Source of the DNA: a virus
DNA: 64,000 nt
IMG/VR virus record: IMGVR_UViG_3300022752_000025
Location: 32,001 to 96,000 of that record
Strand: one strand, 5' to 3'
Within the stretch, counting starts at the first letter, position 1. Every line of letters starts with the position of its first letter. Shown in pieces: positions 5,723 through 52,649 of the stretch. The position numbers and the translations under genes are program-made. Below the pieces are notes generated by a model that saw only the letters and a list, made by a program, of their open reading frames with translations, made no database searches and was not told the origin of the DNA.

Positions 5723-6124
5723 CAGAGGTTAATTTATTCTTCTGTTTCTTTCCAATTTGGATGCGCTTTGGCCCACTTTACAAAAACAACTTCAAGATTT
5801 TCCAAGTATTTATCTATCTGTGCAATAAGTTTAGGATCTTCACCTTGCAGAACTCTTTTTTCTAAGATTTTGCTGATCCTATTTTCATGTTTCATATATA
5901 CTATTTTACAGTAGCGTTATAAATATTTCAATATTTTATTTTATCCTGTAAGATTTAAAGAAAAAATTATTTTAGATGTGTAATTACTATTTTAATTAAT
6001 TGTTCTAATGCGCCCCAAAAAATAGAAAAGCCAATAGCAGAAGCAATAATGAATGGGGCGTTTCTATCAAAAAAATTTCTCACATAAAAACTTTACAGCG
6101 AGAAAAAACTTTTGGGAAAATTCT

Positions 6125-6198
6125 CGCTTTCAGCAGGGATCGAACCTGCAACCTACGGATTAGAAATCCGTTGCTCTATCCAATTGAGCTATGAAAGC
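6125..6198 (-). tRNA. tRNA-Arg(TCT)
   Basis: GCTTTCA..TGAAAGC acceptor, loop TT-TCT-AA. Confidence 0.92.
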
Positions 6199-6200
6199 GA

Positions 6201-6276
6201 TGGTCGCCTAGGTCGGACTCGAACCGACACTTGAACGATTTTAAGTCGTTTGCCTCTGCCATTGGGCTACTAGGCG
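6201..6276 (-). tRNA. tRNA-Leu(TAA), short variable region, CCA encoded
   Basis: CGCCTAG..CTAGGCG-ACCA, loop CT-TAA-AA, 5-nt variable loop. Confidence 0.88.
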
Positions 6277-6282
6277 GATCTT

Positions 6283-6669
6283 TTAGCTATCGTTGTCTAA
6301 CTTTTCAGCAGAGACTTGACCGATAGAATAAAAATCTTGAACTTGTGCAGTTTTAACAAAACTTTCAACAGGAATATTTTTAATCGTATTCGAGACACGA
6401 TTCAGAACAACCTGTTTCAGACCACCTTTAGCACCACGAAACTTCTTTCCAAGTTTGTCACTCATACTATTCATAACATACTTAAACATCACACGCTCTA
6501 ATTTTTCAAGAGTGATCCAAAAATATGCAAAGGATTCACTCATCCATTGAAGTTCGCCATTTGTTCCACCCCAATTATAAATTCGATTGTGAAACTGCTC
6601 AATTTCATCTTTCTTTCCTTTGATACCAATAACCCAATGTGCTCCAAGATTTTGTTTAACGAGTTGCAT
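6283..6669 (-). CDS. Hypothetical protein, paralog of 949..1311
   Basis: EQFHNRIYNWGGTNGELQ; AAGGAG upstream of MQLVKQ start. Confidence 0.75.
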   Translation of the reverse strand: MQLVKQNLGAHWVIGIKGKKDEIEQFHNRIYNWGGTNGELQWMSESFAYFWITLEKLERVMFKYVMNSMSDKLGKKFRGAKGGLKQVVLNRVSNTIKNIPVESFVKTAQVQDFYSIGQVSAEKLDNDS

Positions 6670-41473: not shown

Positions 41474-41494
41474 AATTTAAAATTATTAACTATA

Positions 41495-41582
41495 TGGAAC
41501 GAGTAGGATTCGAACCTACGGATGATATTAAACCATCGGAAGTTTAGTAAACTTCTGCTTTAGACCACTCAGCCATCGTTCC
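41495..41582 (-). tRNA. tRNA-Ser(ACT)
   Basis: GGAACGA..TCGTTCC-A, GGCTGAGTGGTCTAAAGC D-arm, loop TT-ACT-AA, long V-arm. Confidence 0.88.
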
Positions 41583-41591
41583 AAAATAACT

Positions 41592-41781: not shown

Positions 41782-42363
41782 TTAATATTTACTATCTGGA
41801 GGATTTTTAATAACTACTGGTGGAATTGAATTAATTTTAATTTTTTCTGAAATTTTTTCCATGAAAAGAACTCCGTATTTTTTTATTCTTAACTGTCCGT
41901 GCGCTTTTAAAGTAAATCCCCATTCTTGTATACGGTCAATGAATTTATTTCTTATTTCTAAAGAATGATATTCAATTGCCATCTCATTTATACTTATAAA
42001 ATCTTTGGGTTCAAAATTTTCTGCTATTAACAATTCAAATCCTTCTATATCACTTTTAAGTGCGGTGATATTATTTATATTTATCAAATCTTTAATTTGC
42101 TCTGAATTAGATATATCAACATATTGAATAGATAAATTATTTTTATTTTTATATTTTTCTTTAAAAAAATTAATCTCTCTTATATCTTTATCTATGCCTA
42201 TTACTTTATTCGCACCATTTCTTAAAAAATATATAAAAGAAAATTCTTTCTCATTTTTGACTCCCCATCTTCCACACCCTAAATCAAGCACGTTCTGGTC
42301 TTTGATATTGAAATATTTCCAATGTTCTGATGCGTTTTCTGTTTTTATATTAAAATTAATCAT
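41782..42363 (-). CDS. SAM-dependent methyltransferase (FkbM-like)
   Basis: VLDLGCG, LKSDIEGFE, AIEYH. Confidence 0.8.
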   Translation of the reverse strand: MINFNIKTENASEHWKYFNIKDQNVLDLGCGRWGVKNEKEFSFIYFLRNGANKVIGIDKDIREINFFKEKYKNKNNLSIQYVDISNSEQIKDLININNITALKSDIEGFELLIAENFEPKDFISINEMAIEYHSLEIRNKFIDRIQEWGFTLKAHGQLRIKKYGVLFMEKISEKIKINSIPPVVIKNPPDSKY

Positions 42364-42369
42364 TTTTAT

Positions 42370-42774
42370 TTAGTAATTTTTAGATTTCCATTCAAAATTA
42401 AAAAAATCAAACGGCTTTCTATGCTCATCTTTAGGATCATAATCTACATTCGTGCAATTTAAAACCATAGCTTCCTCATTTCCTATCGCGGAAAATCCAT
42501 GCCATATTTTAGGTGGTATGGTTAAAACTGATGAAAATGGAATTAGTACATGTTTTTCACTTTTATTATTAATATCGTCAAATAATCCAACCAAAAGTCT
42601 TCCTTGAAGTAATATAAATCTATCGGTTTGTTTCTCGTGCATATGCCATGCTTTTATAACCCCAGGAAGACATGTAGTTACATATATATGTTTAATTTTT
42701 CCATCTTCTTTTTCTTTAACCAATTCGGCTAACCAGCCACGGTCATCTATAATTTTATTTATTCTTTTATTCAT
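42370..42774 (-). CDS. RmlC-like cupin (dTDP-4-dehydrorhamnose 3,5-epimerase family)
   Basis: DDRGWLAE, GVIKAWHMH, IPPKIWHGF, YDP.DE. Confidence 0.82.
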   Translation of the reverse strand: MNKRINKIIDDRGWLAELVKEKEDGKIKHIYVTTCLPGVIKAWHMHEKQTDRFILLQGRLLVGLFDDINNKSEKHVLIPFSSVLTIPPKIWHGFSAIGNEEAMVLNCTNVDYDPKDEHRKPFDFFNFEWKSKNY

Positions 42775-42779
42775 TTTTA

Positions 42780-43643
42780 TTAATATTTTTTTGGTGGTGG
42801 GTTGGGGTAGTTTACAATTATACTAGAATTATAAGAGCAATTCTTATTTATTCCATTTAATTTTGTGGACCTTGGAATTCTTACCCTCTTTGGCCAAATC
42901 CAAGGTTGTCCATCTTTATATTCTTTTATAATTAAATCCGCTGTTAAATAATCTAAATCTGGTCCGTAATCATAATATGCTCTGTATTTTGATTTATAGA
43001 TTTCTCCTATTTTGGCGTTCTTGTACAAAGAGAGAATCCATCTCTCGGTTATATAATATAATGGGTATCCACGATGATAACTTTTGCTTAAATCTTTTTC
43101 ATGTTCTATGATATCTGGAAGATTTTTTAAATAAGAAGTTTTTGCCCACCAAAAATTTCCAGAGAAAAATAATCTATGAACATATACATCTATGACGTAT
43201 TTATTATGGTAACTCATGGTTAAATTTGATCCGATTACATCATATCCATCTTCTAATCCTTTTATAGAATATTCATATTTATTTATTAATATAAATTCTA
43301 ACATTTTTCTCCAGGCCCATACGCCTTTCATTTTGTGTGGTCTAGAAACTCCTTTCGCGTGAATATATAATACATACGAGTCGTTTGCTTGTGACCATTT
43401 TTTTAATTCCCTTAAGCAGGCTCTTTCGTAATCTTTAAGATAATTTGAATAATAAATTAGATGTATTTTATTTGTCTTTTCTAATAAAAAATTAACATCT
43501 TCCTTTGACTCCCCTAGATATGTAATATAAATCTTATCAAGATCTTCGAATAATTTACTAGAATGTATCTCTTTAAATTGATCCTCTACAATTTCTTTCC
43601 AATGATTTAAACCGCATATATGCCAAAATATTACTTTTTTCAT
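42780..43643 (-). CDS. Putative glycosyltransferase-like protein
   Basis: VLYIHAKGVS, WRKML, FSGNFWW, ERWI motifs. Confidence 0.6.
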   Translation of the reverse strand: MKKVIFWHICGLNHWKEIVEDQFKEIHSSKLFEDLDKIYITYLGESKEDVNFLLEKTNKIHLIYYSNYLKDYERACLRELKKWSQANDSYVLYIHAKGVSRPHKMKGVWAWRKMLEFILINKYEYSIKGLEDGYDVIGSNLTMSYHNKYVIDVYVHRLFFSGNFWWAKTSYLKNLPDIIEHEKDLSKSYHRGYPLYYITERWILSLYKNAKIGEIYKSKYRAYYDYGPDLDYLTADLIIKEYKDGQPWIWPKRVRIPRSTKLNGINKNCSYNSSIIVNYPNPPPKKY

Positions 43644-44927: not shown

Positions 44928-45755
44928 TTATTTTTTATTTACTTTAAAAAGGTTGGATAAAAATGGACATTTACTTTTATCTTCTTCTTTTATCGTAAAT
45001 TTATAATCTAATTTATGGTGTCCTTCTCCAATTTTTTCTCCATCAGTATTTATACCATCTCTATAAAAGAATTGCCTTGTTGACATTTTTTCTCTTTTAC
45101 TATCATTGAATTCCCTTCTAGATTTTGACCAAGTAGTATGTTCCTTTTGTAGCTTCTTATTACTTTTTATATCTAAAAATTCTATATTAGTTTTTTCATT
45201 TAAATTTAATGGATAAGGTATAATTCTACATATAGGATCATTTTCATTAAATTTAATTAATTTATTTTTTTCTGTTATTTTAAAATTCATAGTAAAAGTA
45301 AATGGAGACCAATTTGTTTCTACTAAAGCTTCTAATGCCTGTAAGCCATTCACTGGAGTATTTGAAGGTCCAGATACTAAAAGACCCCATCCTGGAGGAG
45401 TTTTAAAAATTACAGGAAAACTAAAAGTAATAATTCCTTTTACGAAATGAGACATGCAACTGCTAAAATATTCATTTTGTTTTTTATGAATTATTTTTAC
45501 ATCTGACATACTCGGTCCTCCATTCCAAAATATCTCGGTTTCGTTTTGGTATAATATATTATATCCCAATTGATTTGATGCTACTAATGGAGCGCAATAA
45601 TAGGCATAATATTGTTCTTTGTCGTCCATCCAAGTCCTTTTTGGAGATGCAGGAACTATATATTTTTTACATTTTTCTATTATACCGTCATGTAAAGCGT
45701 AGCATTGTATTAATACATCATTTTTTATAATTAAATTATTTGCGTTTAAATTCAT
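44928..45755 (-). CDS. DUF6065-like protein
   Basis: RTWMD..AYYCAPL..NQLG, SGPSN, LVETNWSPFTFTMN, PICRIIP. Confidence 0.75.
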   Translation of the reverse strand: MNLNANNLIIKNDVLIQCYALHDGIIEKCKKYIVPASPKRTWMDDKEQYYAYYCAPLVASNQLGYNILYQNETEIFWNGGPSMSDVKIIHKKQNEYFSSCMSHFVKGIITFSFPVIFKTPPGWGLLVSGPSNTPVNGLQALEALVETNWSPFTFTMNFKITEKNKLIKFNENDPICRIIPYPLNLNEKTNIEFLDIKSNKKLQKEHTTWSKSRREFNDSKREKMSTRQFFYRDGINTDGEKIGEGHHKLDYKFTIKEEDKSKCPFLSNLFKVNKK

Positions 45756-46639
45756 ATATTAAATTTCTTTTTAAAAGCATAATTGTTTATTCTATTAAAT
45801 AAATCGATTGATCCTTTTGTTAAATTGCCATCCTCTATGGCTGGAATTTCTATAAATTCCCATGGTTTATATGATCTCTTGTCAAATATCATTTTTTTTG
45901 TTTTTTCATCTTTTATTCCATAACAATAATGATAAAATAAAGCATTTCTTTCTGAAATATCAAATGGTGGCATATCAAGTACATCTATAATTTCTGGAAT
46001 AATTTTATTTTCTGCAAGAGCAATATTAAATCCATACATATCACATATCCAATTCATATATAGTGGATTATTTTTAACATCAGTAGTTCTAAATAAAACT
46101 GTTAATTCTATCCATCTATTTATTATTTTCCTTAAAATATTCTCTTTAACAAGAAATGGCCAACCTACTGGTTTATAATAAGATAAAAAGTCTGTAAAAC
46201 TAGGATTTACATCTTCCATATAAAATTTTACTACTTTTTTCGTAAACTCGTTGTGGTCTGCATTCATATAATTATATTTTTGTCCCATGATACTTTGAGT
46301 ATTCGAATCAAATTTATCTATAAATATAAAATCTGCTTCAACAAATAAATATAATCTATCTAATTCTACTTCTTTTGTCTCTAAATATTCTTTAATTGAA
46401 AATGCCCTATCATAAATAACATAATCATCATCTTTTTTAAAATTTCTATAGCTCTTATTTTTACATAAAAAATACGGATAGTTTTTATTTAATTTTTCCT
46501 GATCAGTTATTATAACTGATAAAAAATCTACGCTAGGTTCATTTTTATAAAATTTTAAAAATGAATCATACATCATCTCCATTTGCCAATCAATATATTT
46601 ATTGGTTGTTTCTGTTACTAAAACTGTAAATTTATTCAT
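45752..46639 (-). CDS. HPAT/SERGT1-like (GT95/GT96-like) protein O-glycosyltransferase
   Basis: YIDWQ..MYDSF, DYVIYDR, EADFIF, WICDMYGF, HYCYG, FDKRSY in the same order as plant Hyp O-arabinosyltransferase motifs. Confidence 0.72.
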   Translation of the reverse strand: MNKFTVLVTETTNKYIDWQMEMMYDSFLKFYKNEPSVDFLSVIITDQEKLNKNYPYFLCKNKSYRNFKKDDDYVIYDRAFSIKEYLETKEVELDRLYLFVEADFIFIDKFDSNTQSIMGQKYNYMNADHNEFTKKVVKFYMEDVNPSFTDFLSYYKPVGWPFLVKENILRKIINRWIELTVLFRTTDVKNNPLYMNWICDMYGFNIALAENKIIPEIIDVLDMPPFDISERNALFYHYCYGIKDEKTKKMIFDKRSYKPWEFIEIPAIEDGNLTKGSIDLFNRINNYAFKKKFNI

Positions 46640-46784
46640 TTAAATTTTTTTAATATAAAAAAGACTAGATTTTGTAGATATTTTTTTGATATATTCTTCG
46701 GCTTTAGATTTACCATCCTTAGATAAAGGAAAAGCTCCATATAGAAATTTATCTTTTTTTGAAAAAATTGCGTAATATTTATTT

Positions 46785-47000
46785 TTATTTTTCATTTGAT
46801 ATAATTAAATTTTTTAAAAGTTTTAAATGATAAACATTCCAGTTTTCTCCATCGTATTGTTTATTTTTTAAATCTTGATATATATTGTATTGAATAATCT
46901 GCTCTAATAAATCTAAAATTTGTTGGTTATTTTTCATTAATATTATATTATATATTAATGGTGTAATTATTTCTAGAATATATGTTTTATCTCGATACAA
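46785..47000 (-). CDS. Hypothetical protein (start probably MKNNQ)
   Basis: ORF track. Confidence 0.5.
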   Translation of the reverse strand: MYRDKTYILEIITPLIYNIILMKNNQQILDLLEQIIQYNIYQDLKNKQYDGENWNVYHLKLLKNLIISNEK

Positions 47001-48160
47001 CTAATAAATTTTTAGCTATCACTGTAACAAATTCTGGTGGATTTACTGATTATTCTACAAGAGCAAGATCTGGTCATTTATATTATAAAAATGATGTATC
47101 AGATCCGTGGGGAAATAATGGAGTTCATATTGGCTCATTTGATTTAAAAACCGCTGGAACTAAAACATTTGTTTTTGGTAATAGCGGTATATTAACTGGA
47201 TCTTTATCTAATTCTGCTGTTTCAAATAAAGATAAATACGTAAGCATGTGTAATATGTTTTCTGCTGGAAATTTAGATTATCATTTTTTAACAATAGTTG
47301 TTGATAGAGATAAGCCTGGAGATTATGTTTATATTGGATGTCCATGTAGTCAAACAAATCCTGGCGGATTAAATAATACTACATATTGCGCTCCAAATGC
47401 TTTTAATTTTTTAGGCGGTTACAATTATCTTGGAGCAAAAATCTCAATCACACCTTATTATATAAATAGTAATAAATCTTTAATTCAAGGTACAACTTTA
47501 ACATCAGCAAGTATGTCATTTTGGGATCAATTAGAATTTGGTACATTAACAACTTGTCAAAATTTAAGAGCAAATAGTGCTACTTCTGGAAGATTTCCAG
47601 ATACTGCTAATAATATAAATAATATTTCGTGGACTAACGGAGATGTAATAATTCCAACACATGACTGTGCTCCAGATGGACCAGGAGCGACTGTTTGGTA
47701 TGGAGCATATCGATATTATAGACAGGGAACAGCTAATCCTGCTCAATGCGTCTCTACAATAGCGTCTTATTCATTAAAAAATGGTCAACATACTTTTGGT
47801 CAAGTATTTCAAAATCCTCTTGGAACTTTTAATAGTAGAATAATTACAACGCCTACTAGTACAAGTAGTATTCTTAATAGTGAAAGCTACTCGGTAGGAT
47901 ATACTGCTTATGATCAAATATTTGGTTCAACTAATGGGGCGCAAGGAACTGGAACAGTTCAATGCCCAATAACAACAGGAACACCGCGCGGAAATGTTTT
48001 AGGCCCAAGATATATGTTAGACATTTCTCTAAGATGTAACCCTGGCGCAAGAACAAATACTATGGGACCATATTATAATGGCAATACGTATCCAACTTAT
48101 GGAGGATATGGATTTTATTTTAAATTTATTTGGGATGCTTTATGCTATCCCTGCGTTTAA
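46982..48160 (+). CDS. Gly/Thr/Asn/Cys-rich protein, possibly virion-associated
   Basis: 392 aa, beta-rich composition, GTGTAAT upstream. Confidence 0.7.
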   Translation: MFYLDTTNKFLAITVTNSGGFTDYSTRARSGHLYYKNDVSDPWGNNGVHIGSFDLKTAGTKTFVFGNSGILTGSLSNSAVSNKDKYVSMCNMFSAGNLDYHFLTIVVDRDKPGDYVYIGCPCSQTNPGGLNNTTYCAPNAFNFLGGYNYLGAKISITPYYINSNKSLIQGTTLTSASMSFWDQLEFGTLTTCQNLRANSATSGRFPDTANNINNISWTNGDVIIPTHDCAPDGPGATVWYGAYRYYRQGTANPAQCVSTIASYSLKNGQHTFGQVFQNPLGTFNSRIITTPTSTSSILNSESYSVGYTAYDQIFGSTNGAQGTGTVQCPITTGTPRGNVLGPRYMLDISLRCNPGARTNTMGPYYNGNTYPTYGGYGFYFKFIWDALCYPCV

Positions 48161-48163
48161 TTT

Positions 48164-48619
48164 TTATAGAAAATAAACTTTAATATATTCTTCTTTTTCT
48201 GAAACAGAAAAAGACCTATAAGCAGCCCTGTCTTCTATTATTTTCTTCCAAAAATTTGCCCAATCTTCGTCTGTTTTCCCTACAACAAAAATTTTCCCTC
48301 TGTAATCTGTCATTTCTTGTGGTATTTGTCCTGAGTTAGGGGTTGATAACTCTCTTCTAACTTGTCTTGGTTTAGTAATTTCTTTAATTTTTTCTTGAAC
48401 TTTTTCATTTTTAAACATTTCATCAAGAAAATTTGCGTCTTCTGTATTGTATACTTTATTGAAATATTCATGAACTCTTTGTCCACAACTACAACTTGGA
48501 TTTTCTCTCCAACTTAATAAGTCTACTTCTATATCTTTATATTTCTCTTTTAAGATATTAAAAGTTTCATCAAGCTCTATGGCTGCTCTTAGATTTAAAA
48601 AATTAATTTCTTTAGTCAT
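48164..48619 (-). CDS. Hypothetical protein with CxC motif
   Basis: NPSCSCG. Confidence 0.7.
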   Translation of the reverse strand: MTKEINFLNLRAAIELDETFNILKEKYKDIEVDLLSWRENPSCSCGQRVHEYFNKVYNTEDANFLDEMFKNEKVQEKIKEITKPRQVRRELSTPNSGQIPQEMTDYRGKIFVVGKTDEDWANFWKKIIEDRAAYRSFSVSEKEEYIKVYFL

Positions 48620-48669
48620 ATCTAATATTTTATAAATTAGGATATAAAAAATCTAATTTATTTTTTATA

Positions 48670-49476
48670 TTATTCTGGCAACGGTTCTCCTGGAATTCCT
48701 GGAGTTACTCCCTCATGATTTCCTCCTCCGACGCAATTTGTTGGAGGTGGAGGTGGTAAAGGTGGAGGTGAAGGTGGAGGAGGTGGTGGAGGAGGAGGTG
48801 AACACCACTCAGGTCTTGGGCTTGGTGGTTGCCAATTCGGATCAGGTTTTACAGAAAAATCGATGTATCTATAAAAAATATCACTGGTACAAAAAAATCC
48901 ATCACATGGCGGAGTTCCATTAACATCTACTGGTCTTGCACCTGGAATTGGGTCAGACCCTATAACTGCCCAAGGTCTTTTACACCCTAGAAGAATGTCT
49001 ATATCTTCTGCATTTTTATCTGCTGCTTCTTTCTCTAAAAGCTCATAACATCCTTCTGGCCTTATTTTTTCTTCATATCTATTTTTTAAATCTAATTCAT
49101 TTGCTTTAATTTCTTCTATAAGTCTTTTTCCAAATGCTTGTTTATCTGATGTGCAATTTCCAAAATAAAGGCTAGACTTTGTAATACTTGAACTAATAGG
49201 TCCACATCTATATTCTAATTCAAAAGGAAATCTAGATCCCTTTTTATAAAAGTCACAAGGATCTGCATTTTTATCATAATTATAAATAGATATACCGTTT
49301 GGACACTGAATGCTTGGCGTAGGGAAAGGCCATCCTCTATGAAATTCTGCTTCGTAAAAACTTTTATAGCAACTAGAATTAGCGCAACAATCTAACTGTC
49401 TTATACAGTTTTGCAATTGCGCATTGTAATCAACTGGGTCGTGAGGAAAAACATAAGAGCACATATGATTTTCCAA
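48670..49476 (-). CDS. Cys-rich protein with extensin-like Ser-Pro(n) tract
   Basis: SP9-SP3-LP5 near C-terminus, about 15 Cys; GTGTAAT-N7-TTG. Confidence 0.75.
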   Translation of the reverse strand: MENHMCSYVFPHDPVDYNAQLQNCIRQLDCCANSSCYKSFYEAEFHRGWPFPTPSIQCPNGISIYNYDKNADPCDFYKKGSRFPFELEYRCGPISSSITKSSLYFGNCTSDKQAFGKRLIEEIKANELDLKNRYEEKIRPEGCYELLEKEAADKNAEDIDILLGCKRPWAVIGSDPIPGARPVDVNGTPPCDGFFCTSDIFYRYIDFSVKPDPNWQPPSPRPEWCSPPPPPPPPPSPPPLPPPPPTNCVGGGNHEGVTPGIPGEPLPE

Positions 49477-49484
49477 TTCCTATA

Positions 49485-52256
49485 TTACACTCTTGGGATA
49501 TTTCCTGTATTTTGAACTAAATTATATTTAATAGAAATATCCTCTTTAGAATCATCGCTTGTTTTAAATGATATTAAACCTGTGCAAATTGGGACATTAT
49601 ATTCTTTAAATTTATTTAAATTTTGAGGTGAATATGGACTAATTTTATTTATTTTATTTCCTGCATAGGCTGAATATTTGTCTCCATAATATAAATTATC
49701 TGGTATATGAGCCGCAGAGATCTTGAATGTTTTAACGCTTGCCGATGTATATCCTGTAATTTCAAAAGTTTCTGGATTTACTAATACTCCACTTTTTAAA
49801 GTTTCACTAATAGCCGAACCTAGATATGGATTTCTTCCAGAGCCGTATATATTATTTCCTGTATAAAAATAAAATCCAGTATATGAAATTGGTAAAAGTA
49901 AATCATAAGTTTTATCTGTTTCTAAATATAATTCTGGATATCTTTGATTTTGGAATCTATAGTAAACTTTTGCTCCACTTCTTTCTTGTGGAATATCAAA
50001 TTGGCTAAAAACTTTAGTTCTTAATACTAAATTTAAACTTTGTTCTCTTAAATTATCTCCACTGATCATCATTTTGCCTGTGATTGAATTTGGCGAAACG
50101 GAAAAATATTCTATACTTGGATCAATATTATTTTCCTTCACACTAAATTGAATTAATCTATAATTCCCGTTGATTTTATTATAATTTGGTTCAATAACTT
50201 TTAATCCACTTACATCACCTTTAATAGCTAAAGGCCTATGATGCGATAAGTTTGTTTGCAAGAAATTATATTTAAGGCCTTTTTTTAATATTATTTCATC
50301 TAATTTTTTATATTTATTTGAAACTGTATCGTAGAATCTATATCCAGATCCACTTAAAAAGTTAACTGAAACATATTCTTGCTTTGAGTCTTCTGTGTTA
50401 AAAGTTGGTAAATTATTTCTTTGTAATTTAAAAAGTAAATCTAATTGTACTGCTCCAGTTATTGGATTAAAATTATTTTTCTGATAAACAAGTTGACCAT
50501 TTTGATTTTTAAATAAACCAGAATAACCTTCTCTATATTTAAAATATTGTCTCTCAGTATTTAAATTTGAAACATAGGTATCTGGTTCTACATTAACAGT
50601 AATGTTTGCTTGACCTTGATAAGAAGGTAATGCTTTAGTTTTTGATGCAAATTTTGCTTTTAATGTAGAAGTTTCTGAAATTATATTTAAACCTGTTGCA
50701 TAAGCTGTAAGCCCAAATACTGGACTAGATGTAGGTAGATTACCATTATTATCATATTTTAACAATGATCCTTCTAAATTATACTCTAGATTATCTCCAG
50801 TGCCTTGAATTACGCCTAATTGATTTTCTCTAAAAGATGAAAAATAGTAATCATCAAAAAATATTTTAGTATTATTTCCCAAAGCCTTTGTAGAAGCTGA
50901 AATTAATTTAGATTTTACTAAAAAGCTTAATTTACCATCTTCTAGCATTGTGCCTGTAACTTCATTTAAAATTAAACCGCCAGTATTTGTATAGATTTTT
51001 GTTCCATTAGCTAAAGTAGAGGAATGAGTTCCAGTCTTTAGATAATTAATTCTAAAATTAATATCCACGCTACTATTTTTACCTATTGTATAATATTTTA
51101 CAAGTTGGCCAGATAAAGGATGATTATTTGGATAAACAAATTGAGTTATTTTAAATTTATCATCAATTACTTCAAGATTTGAAGAAGCAGAAGAGATATA
51201 AAAATTCTTTGGTAAATCTCCAGTATTAAATACAGAAAATGAATAAACTTCTCTATCGTTTAAAGTGCCAGATTGATTTATAGTATAATTATTATTATAT
51301 AACTTGTATAATCCAGTATTATTTGGTTGAAAATATGGTCCATATCCTAAATCAAAAGAATTTGGAGAAGTTCCTGTTGGAATCCAGGAAACAGTTCCGC
51401 TAAATACAAATATTCTACGAATTGTTTCGTCTGATGATTTAACTTTTATAGGATCATCATATTGTAAATTTCTTTCGCCCCTCATTTCTGTATAAACAAA
51501 AGAACATCTATTCGTTACACACCATTCAATATTTGGAATATTATCTTGAAAATATATTTTATTATAAGAAATTAATTGCCCAGTTTTTGTGCCAGAGATA
51601 ATACCGCTAGTTTGTGCGTCCGCATAGTATTCTGATAATCCAAAATTTAATAATTCTTTTTTCGTCCAATAATTTCTTCCTACGCTTCCTAATTGATATC
51701 CACTATGATCAACTAATTCGAAAATATTTTTATATGGAGATATAAATGGTGCCCATGGAAGATCATTTCTAACGAATCCGCAAATTTTAAATCTTTGGCC
51801 AGAGGAAATTCCTTCTGGATATCCAAAACCATCTTCTTTTCCATAAGGAAATCCTGCGTCAGGTTCAAAATTAGCTCTTATAGTCCTATCCAAGCAATAA
51901 GCTTGACCATTTACTGTAGTATATGGATCTTTATCTAAAGGATAATATGTCTTGGCAAATTTAATTTTTAATCCAGATGCTCTATAAGTTTTTAACCATC
52001 CAGATTCATACCATAATGAATTATAATTATCTTTTCTGTAAGTTTTTAAATCATTTAAATAATTTTGATTATCTCTTTTAGATATTTCGCTACCTAAAAT
52101 TACTTTAGAATTGTTTAACAAATCTTTAAATTTTGGTGTTAAATATTCTTTATCTGCATATTCATAATAAGTATTATTAATAGCAGATGCTAAATCTAAG
52201 TCTTTAGCTTTTGTTTGACCGCTAAATCCTTTTCTATATCCAGTAATTTTATTCAT
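49485..52256 (-). CDS. Large probable virion structural / tail-associated protein
   Basis: 923 aa, recurrent SG/TG dipeptides, L.LKKG.KYNF and PDNLYY motifs. Confidence 0.65.
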   Translation of the reverse strand: MNKITGYRKGFSGQTKAKDLDLASAINNTYYEYADKEYLTPKFKDLLNNSKVILGSEISKRDNQNYLNDLKTYRKDNYNSLWYESGWLKTYRASGLKIKFAKTYYPLDKDPYTTVNGQAYCLDRTIRANFEPDAGFPYGKEDGFGYPEGISSGQRFKICGFVRNDLPWAPFISPYKNIFELVDHSGYQLGSVGRNYWTKKELLNFGLSEYYADAQTSGIISGTKTGQLISYNKIYFQDNIPNIEWCVTNRCSFVYTEMRGERNLQYDDPIKVKSSDETIRRIFVFSGTVSWIPTGTSPNSFDLGYGPYFQPNNTGLYKLYNNNYTINQSGTLNDREVYSFSVFNTGDLPKNFYISSASSNLEVIDDKFKITQFVYPNNHPLSGQLVKYYTIGKNSSVDINFRINYLKTGTHSSTLANGTKIYTNTGGLILNEVTGTMLEDGKLSFLVKSKLISASTKALGNNTKIFFDDYYFSSFRENQLGVIQGTGDNLEYNLEGSLLKYDNNGNLPTSSPVFGLTAYATGLNIISETSTLKAKFASKTKALPSYQGQANITVNVEPDTYVSNLNTERQYFKYREGYSGLFKNQNGQLVYQKNNFNPITGAVQLDLLFKLQRNNLPTFNTEDSKQEYVSVNFLSGSGYRFYDTVSNKYKKLDEIILKKGLKYNFLQTNLSHHRPLAIKGDVSGLKVIEPNYNKINGNYRLIQFSVKENNIDPSIEYFSVSPNSITGKMMISGDNLREQSLNLVLRTKVFSQFDIPQERSGAKVYYRFQNQRYPELYLETDKTYDLLLPISYTGFYFYTGNNIYGSGRNPYLGSAISETLKSGVLVNPETFEITGYTSASVKTFKISAAHIPDNLYYGDKYSAYAGNKINKISPYSPQNLNKFKEYNVPICTGLISFKTSDDSKEDISIKYNLVQNTGNIPRV

Positions 52257-52388
52257 GATTTTTAGGCCTAGCTTTGTCTAGACTTCTTGTTGCTCTTTTT
52301 TGCCTCATTTCTGAACCCTGATGTTCTCAATGAAAAAGCCGGTTATCTAGATGTTAAAACCTTTCTGGTGGTTTCTTCTTGCTCTTCT

Positions 52389-52636
52389 CATGTATGTTAT
52401 TTTTCATTTTTTAAAATGAAAACTCGATGTCTCCATCGAGATCGGACTATATCTTGCTTACTGACTTTCGTTAGTAAGACTGGGTGCTCGTGTCTCTGTT
52501 ATTGTTACGGTAACTCAAGAGTTAGTCTCTACACCTTCATGCTTCGTTTTTACCGTGAAGCAGGCTTGGCTCGGTATAATCCACTTGGGACTTCCACCGA
52601 ATTCACCCAGTATGCCCATCATCTTTTAAAGAACTA
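52389..52636 (-). ncRNA. Group I intron core (IA-like), no internal ORF, splice sites undefined
   Basis: P3 ACTGGGTG/CACCCAGT, P4 TTCGGT/ACCGAG, R GTGTAGAGACTA, S AAGATATAGTCC, P8 GAAA loop, P9 GAGA loop. Confidence 0.85.
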
Positions 52637-52642
52637 TAACCT

Positions 52643-52649
52643 ATTACAC
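52643..52649 (-). promoter_or_regulatory. GTGTAAT motif (putative phage-sigma promoter) upstream of the group I RNA
   Basis: Same motif precedes eleven other gene starts in window. Confidence 0.55.

Follow-up and report, generated by a model that had tools for sequence, protein, structure and literature searches.

The closest described relatives of the system reported here belong to plants and green algae. The extensin pathway consists of a prolyl 4-hydroxylase (P4H), SGT1 of glycosyltransferase (GT) family 96, HPAT of family GT95 and elongases of family GT77 (PMC5371791, PMC8012813). GT95 and GT96 are related families (PMC8012813), treated in these sources as plant and algal enzymes of that pathway (PMC8012813, PMC5371791, PMC8476585). 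Both characterised branches of the superfamily act on Ser-hydroxyproline (Hyp)(n) peptides (PMC8012813, PMC5371791), SGT1 modifying, in extensin, the Ser in front of the Pro/Hyp run (PMC5371791); plant HPATs are Golgi type II membrane proteins (PMC8012813), and GT95 is predicted to be GT-A-like (PMC8476585). Here we describe a phage locus that encodes a member of this superfamily. In the stretch analysed, a 64,000-nucleotide window corresponding to bases 32001-96000 of the 132,273-bp IMG/VR record IMGVR_UViG_3300022752_000025 (CheckV completeness 86%), the gene of an HPAT-family enzyme lies near that of a Cys/Pro-rich protein with a polyproline segment, hereafter the stalk protein, and overlaps the gene of a DUF6065 protein (Table 1). 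We tentatively propose, with somewhat less than even confidence, that this enzyme is a cytoplasmic O-glycosyltransferase whose acceptors are the Cys-bracketed Ser/Pro stalks of the phage's own proteins, with the DUF6065 protein as its partner. Modification of Pro-rich targets in the cytoplasm or by viruses is known from the Skp1 (PhyA/Gnt1...Gat1) and chlorovirus (PBCV-1 P4H) systems, which are begun by a 2-oxoglutarate (2OG) prolyl hydroxylase, whereas none was found here. Freeman and colleagues are said to have reported in 2023 that mycobacteriophage GTs of other families decorate the phages' own structural proteins on Ser/Thr/Pro-rich extensions; a phage-encoded GT is common to both cases, whereas the phages and GT families differ, and here both glycosylation and a virion location are hypothetical.

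The enzyme is assigned to the HPAT/SGT1 (GT95/GT96) superfamily by its profile match and its modelled fold. It matches Pfam HPAT (PF23452) at 73.5 bits (cut-off 23.9, E 2.6e-20), residues 4-262 covering profile positions 1-277 of 307, a full-length match that was recovered again in a genome search. An earlier reading of the letters alone (the sequence-only reading) had called the enzyme HPAT/SERGT1-like from six motifs, YIDWQMEMMYDSF, DYVIYDR, EADFIF, WICDMYGF, HYCYG and FDKRSY; all are present in this order in the open reading frame (ORF), and the identity is borne out by the Pfam score, the conservation of the family motifs and the GT-A fold. In an alignment of 32 sequences, W18, D103, P161, W197, M201 and H237 are invariant, and among 87 sequences at least 90% conservation is seen for W18, D103, P161, W176, W197, M201, H237, Y238 and K254. 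E101-x-D103 and H237 are candidate ligands for a metal and a nucleotide sugar; a [DE]-x-D motif with a distal His is the metal-binding arrangement of GT8 enzymes. The AlphaFold (AF2) model of the enzyme (pLDDT 95.9, pTM 0.92) retrieved 4ayl from the PDB with Foldseek (E 2.3e-8) and, with VIA, 4ayj_A at Z 15.0 (211 aligned residues, root-mean-square deviation (r.m.s.d.) 3.7). Its neighbours at Z 14-15 are retaining GT-A enzymes of GT6 (BoGT6a, GTA/GTB, alpha3GalT), GT8 (glycogenin, LgtC) and GT24 (UGGT), and the Skp1-pathway galactosyltransferase 6mw5 is also among them (Z 14.3). The model is thus of a GT-A fold and of the retaining structural type, with which an alpha-linkage would fit. The comparison by hidden Markov model and Foldseek that the sequence-only reading had called for groups the enzyme with the HPAT profile and on a GT-A fold (4ayl). 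Since the PF23452 match begins at residue 4, with no N-terminal extension before the catalytic domain, the enzyme is probably soluble.

Set against HPAT1-3 (GT95), the phage enzyme belongs to the same Pfam family, has a GT-A-type fold and the same order of motifs (N-terminal W-Q, [DE]-x-D, W-x-x-[DE]-M, H-Y-[CT]-Y, D-K-R), and its candidate acceptors are likewise Ser/Pro runs. It differs in being a soluble protein of 295 amino acids (aa) that lacks the type II membrane anchor and falls in a separate clade, in carrying E-A-D-F where plant-like rows have E-P-D-H, and in its setting, no Hyp-making hydroxylase having been found in the phage record. The likeness to SGT1/SERGT1 (GT96) concerns the acceptor: the Ser targeted by SGT1 occupies the position of the invariant Ser/Thr of the phage stalks. 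SGT1 itself is a protein of about 800 aa with extra domains and needs Hyp in the peptide.

HMMER, run exhaustively against 1.84 billion representative proteins, yielded 109 matches at E<=1e-3, and 84 of the 87 homologues of suitable length matched Pfam HPAT. Alignment A6 left out fragments (P0013, P0048 and others) and proteins outside 230-480 aa; the tree, a quick IQ-TREE search (LG+G4, midpoint root only) on 104 domain sequences, none of them a labelled GT96 sequence, left out rows covering fewer than 200 profile positions. The enzyme falls in a clade of 20 rows (SH-aLRT 96) made of stand-alone soluble proteins of about 290 aa, five of which come from virus records. A separate clade of 23 rows (SH-aLRT 99) holds all four named plant or eukaryote rows, namely a Brassica 'HPAT-like domain' protein, an Avena protein and two marine eukaryote transcript clusters. 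Short forms are also found on bacterial chromosomes, at seven loci (Thermomicrobiales, Gemmatimonadaceae, Gemmatimonadales, Longimicrobiaceae, Rhodothermales, Kolteria novifilia). The label 'plant-type' that had been given to the module is hence apt for the superfamily (PF23452) and misleading as to origin, the enzyme lying outside the named-plant clade of the 104-row tree; recent capture from a plant or alga is ruled out by the tree and by the bacterial chromosomal members.

The best candidate acceptor is the stalk protein. Its ORF (48670-49476, minus strand) contains about 15 Cys and a polyproline tract at residues 226-245, as had been claimed. The ATG at 49464 is its likely start, because the product then begins MC..., like its orthologues; this 264-aa product contains 43 Pro and 15 Cys. 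Across the proteome Pro makes up 3.5% and Cys 1.3% of residues, and any PPP occurs in only 8 of 200 ORFs. In context the stalk reads EWC-S-PPPPPPPPP-S-PPP-L-PPPPP-TNC and is encoded by mixed CCT/CCA codons, which rules out a homopolymer artefact. A scan of the 200 ORFs of the whole record revealed four paralogous Cys-rich Ser/Pro-stalk proteins: that of the window, and a tandem set of three encoded some 3-5 kb ahead of the window's start (window coordinates about -5000 to -3226), the latter with ends of the form PPTNCVGGG...PPPE/PPTE. All four share the pattern C-S-P(4-20)/(SPP)n-PPTNCVGGG-...-PPPE, and they make up four of the five ORFs (n = 200) with a run of at least four Pro. When the orthologues are included, an M-(G/S)-C N-terminus and the frame P-L-P-x-x-C-[ST]-P5...PP-x-PP-T-x-C-x-x-G-G are present in 6/6 family members. 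No poly-Thr or other Ser/Thr-rich tags were detected in the genome. The stalk protein had no Pfam, PHROG or PDB sequence match, and a search of its N-domain against 5.8 billion clusters returned nothing beyond the protein itself.

The link between enzyme and stalk protein comes from comparison of loci. Only two other IMG/VR records carry the block, with genes for a 931- or 941-aa protein, a stalk protein, a protein of about 150 aa, a 386- or 377-aa protein, an HPAT-like protein and DUF6065, and the order 923-aa protein, stalk protein, 151-aa protein, 392-aa protein, GT and DUF6065 is found in 3/3 related records covering the region. A search for DUF6065 gave 59 viral loci. The HPAT-like gene is present in two of them, which are the two related records, and a Cys-rich polyproline ORF occurs only in those same two HPAT-bearing loci (Fisher p 0.009, counting loci). 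Four other DUF6065 loci have a frame with at least five consecutive Pro: L071 (53 aa), L072 (853 aa, P8), L080 (66 aa) and L086 (216 aa, no Cys). In the closer relatives L044 and L045 (DUF6065 61% identical), the 151-aa, 392-aa and DUF6065 genes are kept and the GT, stalk protein and 923-aa genes are absent, and in L047-L049 purA and DUF6065 stand without any of the five genes between them. These gene contents indicate that presence of the GT tracks that of the stalk protein and of the 923-aa gene rather than that of the 392-aa gene.

The trio of HPAT-family enzyme, DUF6065 and polyproline protein recurs on bacterial chromosomes. In 3/3 Gemmatimonadota loci (L037, L039, L042), the HPAT-family gene and an operon converge; the operon encodes a 315-364-aa polyproline protein and then an overlapping DUF6065. 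The polyproline protein opens with a PqqD domain (L039, E 4e-8; L037, E 4e-6), continues with a hydrophobic segment whose last residues are LLPGC and with an [SG]-P5 run ending in P10-P17 and followed by S-x-C, and closes with a Cys-rich domain. DNA coding for P10 is rare in two Gemmatimonadota genomes, with about 14 sites across 8.4 Mb in one and 5 across 5.1 Mb in the other; the probability that a site falls by chance within 3 kb of any one gene is about 0.01 for the first and 0.006 for the second. Between the phage and Gemmatimonadota stalk proteins, hhalign aligned only a 28-column polyPro-[ST]-x-C stretch, which we do not count as homology because of its low complexity. A Thermomicrobiales contig has DUF6065 followed by a co-directional HPAT-like gene and is too short for its neighbours to be judged. 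Overall, 7 of the 13 loci examined have DUF6065 adjoining the HPAT-like gene, and among the 12 evaluable HPAT-like loci a Cys-flanked polyproline protein is encoded in 6/6 with DUF6065 and 0/6 without it; L040 (2.7 kb) was left out of this count, and L019 (1,987 bp) and L020 (1,029 bp) were dropped as too short to show neighbours. Co-occurrence of enzyme and polyproline proteins, another check that had been suggested, is thus seen in the phage lineage and separately in Gemmatimonadota.

Several further features of HPAT-bearing loci were noted. The gene upstream of the PqqD-polyproline gene (L039 8895-9809; L037 8577-9365) encodes a protein of about 260-300 aa with a P-loop-like GxxGxGKT/S-type motif; it has no Pfam match at E<=0.01 and may resemble the HPr-kinase-like proteins of peptide clusters. 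The Gemmatimonadales chromosome that carries L039 (G005) has three identical P10-coding stretches about 11 kb apart, at 2314381, 2325301 and 2336766, which suggests a repeated polyproline gene family. Two GC-rich virus fragments with distant HPAT-like genes, L010 and L011, encode a helicase split by an intein that bears a LAGLIDADG endonuclease, and a Volactin-family actin (L010 3029-5842, L011 6762-7928), and may come from viruses of an archaeal host or from large viruses. One gene away from their HPAT-like genes, both encode a conserved Cys-rich protein of 485 or 467 aa (L010 9639-11096, L011 3793-5196) with a short collagen-like G-x-y stretch and DPPPPEQCC, and with a poly-Ser tail in L010. 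Homology between these proteins and the stalk protein of the window was sought and none was found (BLASTP E 0.33; hhalign probability 0.1%).

The third member of the trio, the DUF6065 protein, matches Pfam PF19541 at E 2.2e-64. Its AF2 model (pLDDT 81.2) gave Z 10.1 to 3t60_A in a wide VIA search (131 aligned residues, r.m.s.d. 3.5), and the top 22 structural matches are all dUTPases or dCTP deaminases, with Z from 10.1 down to 5.2; no oxygenase is found among the 50 best matches listed. Its invariant residues are H103, E146, N157, K159 and R213, with no HxD...H pattern among them. The protein may be a substrate adaptor, a binder of uridine nucleotides or a second modifying activity of new chemistry. 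Prediction of a complex between it and the HPAT-like protein scored 0.00, which weighs neither for nor against binding, and a literature search found no paper on the family.

In the mechanism that we tentatively favour, the enzyme most likely binds a UDP-sugar through E101-x-D103 and H237, and would O-glycosylate Ser/Thr (or modified Pro) of the stalks C-[ST]-P(n)...PP-T-x-C on the four phage proteins. The stalks would be modified before the proteins leave the cell, and DUF6065 would serve as substrate adaptor or provide a second modifying activity. If this is true, a soluble phage and bacterial branch tied to stalk proteins would offer a tractable bacterial system for studying how GT95/GT96-type enzymes recognise polyproline-II peptides, would bring a new family into the small set of described phage self-glycosylation systems, and would provide a first clue to the function of the widespread DUF6065 proteins. 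Were the stalk proteins carried by the virion, their sugars could influence its adsorption, stability or recognition. A bolder extension, which we hold to be improbable, is that extensin glycosylation has a cytoplasmic, hydroxylase-independent counterpart in phages and bacteria (Gemmatimonadota, perhaps others), in which a short soluble HPAT decorates Cys-bracketed polyproline stalks together with DUF6065, the latter serving for stalk recognition or new Pro/Ser chemistry, and that plant GT95/GT96 descended from this prokaryotic family. Our literature search returned no description of phage or bacterial HPAT-family enzymes, nor of the HPAT-DUF6065-stalk trio; the phylogenetic tables of PMC8476585 and PMC8012813 may list non-plant GT95.

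A number of observations weigh against glycosylation of the stalks. First, hydroxyproline chemistry finds no support. The sequence-only reading had seen no prolyl 4-hydroxylase in the window, and this holds for the whole 86%-complete record, in which no match to PF13640, PF13759, PF03171 or PF13661 was found, a host enzyme being possible; DUF6065 is an improbable candidate for the missing prolyl hydroxylase, given its dUTPase-like fold. Second, the enzyme is, from its sequence, in a short-form prokaryotic/viral clade apart from plant HPATs and shares only 20-25% identity with the eukaryotic clade, so that acceptor specificity is not transferable from the eukaryotic enzymes; any acceptor assigned to the short forms would be so by comparison. 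Third, the description of the stalk protein as an extensin-like surface protein is not supported: inspection by eye reveals no signal peptide, Tyr cross-link motif or repeated SP3-5 array, the N-terminal residues (MCSYVFPHD) lack a hydrophobic leader, Y-x-Y is absent from the vicinity of the stalk, and the window's protein has a single stalk and no array, two paralogues carrying (SPP)4. A virion or surface location is conjectural. Fourth, in bacteria the LLPGC segment, if a signal or anchor, would put the stalk outside the membrane, which is awkward for a cytoplasmic enzyme. Finally, the association has its limits. Six of the 13 HPAT-like loci (G002, G003, G004, L036, L038, L041) have neither DUF6065 nor a long Pro run; their neighbours are GT2, NAD-epimerase, FGE-sulfatase, BNR/Sortilin and cadherin-like/DUF4214 genes and, in G002, replication-type genes as judged by eye. 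In G002, a related fragment rated 34% complete, the HPAT-like gene belongs to the replication module and 51 kb of sequence contain no Pro-rich ORF, and in L036, L038 and L041 short alternative P4-P5 frames in GC-rich DNA were counted as absent. The co-occurrence p-values overstate independence, because loci within a lineage are orthologous and there are two lineages only. Taken together, the claim that the phage glycosylates its own stalk protein keeps its footing in family, fold and the comparative link to stalk proteins, and loses it for hydroxyproline chemistry, extensin features and surface location.

Glycosylation of another phage protein, chiefly the 392-aa or the 923-aa protein, with the polyproline proteins as bystanders of the same structural block, is unlikely in our estimate. 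The GT gene always lies between DUF6065 and the 392-aa gene, and in L009, a 119.7-kb record, it is inverted and lies directly upstream of the co-directional 377-aa orthologue, overlapping its start. This acceptor is also kept alive by L044, which has no HPAT-like gene and encodes beside its 392-aa homologue a 212-aa protein (5833-6471) with a D-A-D motif and a weak GT2 match (E 0.0016, 18.8 bits, cut-off 23.3). The 923-aa gene, for its part, is lost together with the GT. Yet L044 and L045 have no HPAT-like gene and still keep the 392-aa and 151-aa genes, the 392-aa protein has no low-complexity Ser/Thr/Pro tract, and the Gemmatimonadota loci encode a polyproline protein and no homologue of either the 392-aa or the 151-aa protein.

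It is rather improbable that the enzyme acts on a non-protein acceptor, such as a unit of the host envelope (O-antigen, capsule, teichoic acid), or elongates a glycan among the sugar-tailoring genes of the phage. Genes for an FdtA-type cupin, a methyltransferase-like and an FMN-reductase-like protein lie nearby, DegT aminotransferase and GT1-type genes occur in the genome, homologues adjoin NAD-epimerase or GT2 genes in L010, L011 and L041, and the closest solved folds (GT6, GT8) act mostly on glycans. Such an acceptor would leave unexplained both the co-loss and why the enzyme recurs alongside polyproline proteins and DUF6065 in two lineages, and the characterised relatives are peptide O-glycosyltransferases (PMC8012813). 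Least probable is modification of nucleotides or phage DNA (base glycosylation) by the enzyme and DUF6065, for which the dUTPase/dCTP deaminase fold, the wealth of nucleotide-metabolism genes in the window and the position of the G002 homologue between primase-like and nuclease-like replication genes would speak, but 57 of the 59 viral DUF6065 loci are without the GT, no hydroxymethylase-type gene was identified next to the GT-DUF6065 pair, the Gemmatimonadota context is a PqqD peptide-type operon, and a DNA arabinosyltransferase was rejected, the known phage DNA arabinosyl- and glucosyltransferases being of the GT-B type and of no relation to the HPAT family (PMC6024577, PMC13326640).

Table 1. 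Features of the locus and stalk paralogues (window positions unless marked genome).
Feature	Position	Strand	Basis
HPAT-family (GT95/GT96-like) soluble GT-A glycosyltransferase, 295 aa, ATG start	45752..46639	-	Pfam and fold
DUF6065 protein, 275 aa, dUTPase/dCTP-deaminase-like fold	44928..45755	-	start overlaps GT gene end by 4 nucleotides
Cys/Pro-rich stalk protein, best candidate acceptor, 264 aa from ATG 49464 (268 aa from TTG 49476)	48670..49464	-	composition, paralogues
Stalk S-P9-S-P3-L-P5, Cys before, T-N-C-V-G-G-G after	48742..48801	-	sequence
Stalk paralogue 1, 260 aa, C-S-P20-T-N-C-V-G-G-G...PPPE	genome 27000-27782		
Stalk paralogue 2, 149 aa, (SPP)4	genome 27788-28237		
Stalk paralogue 3, 166 aa, (SPP)4	genome 28274-28774		
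923-aa protein directly upstream of stalk gene, comes and goes with it	49485..52256	-	ORF, synteny
151-aa protein, conserved block member, kept in L044/L045 without GT	48164..48619	-	synteny
392-aa Ser/Thr/Asn/Gly-rich protein, conserved Cys pairs, alternative candidate acceptor	46982..48160	+	orthologues 57% and 41% identity
Sugar-tailoring neighbours: methyltransferase-like (193 aa), FdtA/WxcM-type cupin (134 aa), 287-aa protein	41782..43643	-	Pfam

Among the other genes of the block, the 923-aa ORF ends 9 nucleotides before the TTG and 21 before the ATG of the stalk gene, which therefore lies directly downstream of it as the sequence-only reading had it. The same reading took its product for a probable virion protein, for which no support emerged: there was no Pfam match above cut-off (RavJ_Peptidase scored below threshold, 15.8 bits against 26), no PHROG match and nothing usable from the ESM Atlas. 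A 928-aa paralogue is encoded at genome 18831-21617 (26% identity over about 700 aa, E 5e-43). It is not shown to be structural either, since PHROGs gave, for ten genes around the terminase gene, only one nuclease match (E 1e-14) and one weak match to a family of unknown function (E 0.008). The paralogue region (genome 18549-21617) and the terminase gene share a strand and are about 3.5 kb apart, and the 89-aa protein encoded after the paralogue has a hydrophobic N-terminal stretch by eye and carries GGPPPPPSGCGC (GGPPPPPSGC). The 392-aa protein had no Pfam match at cut-off and nothing usable from PHROGs or the ESM Atlas. Membership of the sugar-tailoring genes in the system is uncertain; they match Polysacc_synt_C (E 3.2e-10) and FdtA (E 7.1e-8), with methyltransferase matches below cut-off, and are syntenic in the related phage L006. 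The methyltransferase-like protein (41782-42363) and the 287-aa protein (42780-43643) both end in N-P-P-x-x-K-Y, tails that are kept in L006 and that may be a shared C-terminal tag.

The source genome belongs to a tailed bacteriophage whose gene products include a T4-type large terminase, DnaB helicase, a DnaE-type Pol III alpha subunit, ribonucleotide reductase, PurA, an IMPDH/GMPR-family enzyme, UvdE, DNA ligase and 11 tRNAs, and its GC content around the enzyme and stalk region is 25-32%. The phage is distant from those in culture: its terminase shares at most 27% identity with cultured phages, PHROG matches are absent for most of its genes, and a tblastn search of 50,697 phage records with the enzyme gave no match. 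A scan for promoters and terminators returned 39 sites against 50.4 expected and is uninformative. The interval between purA and the 923-aa gene (52257-52649) contains a spurious-looking 121-aa ORF and a terminator-like hairpin (52440-52423), and ARAGORN called a tRNA-Ser with anticodon ACT at window positions 41494-41583.

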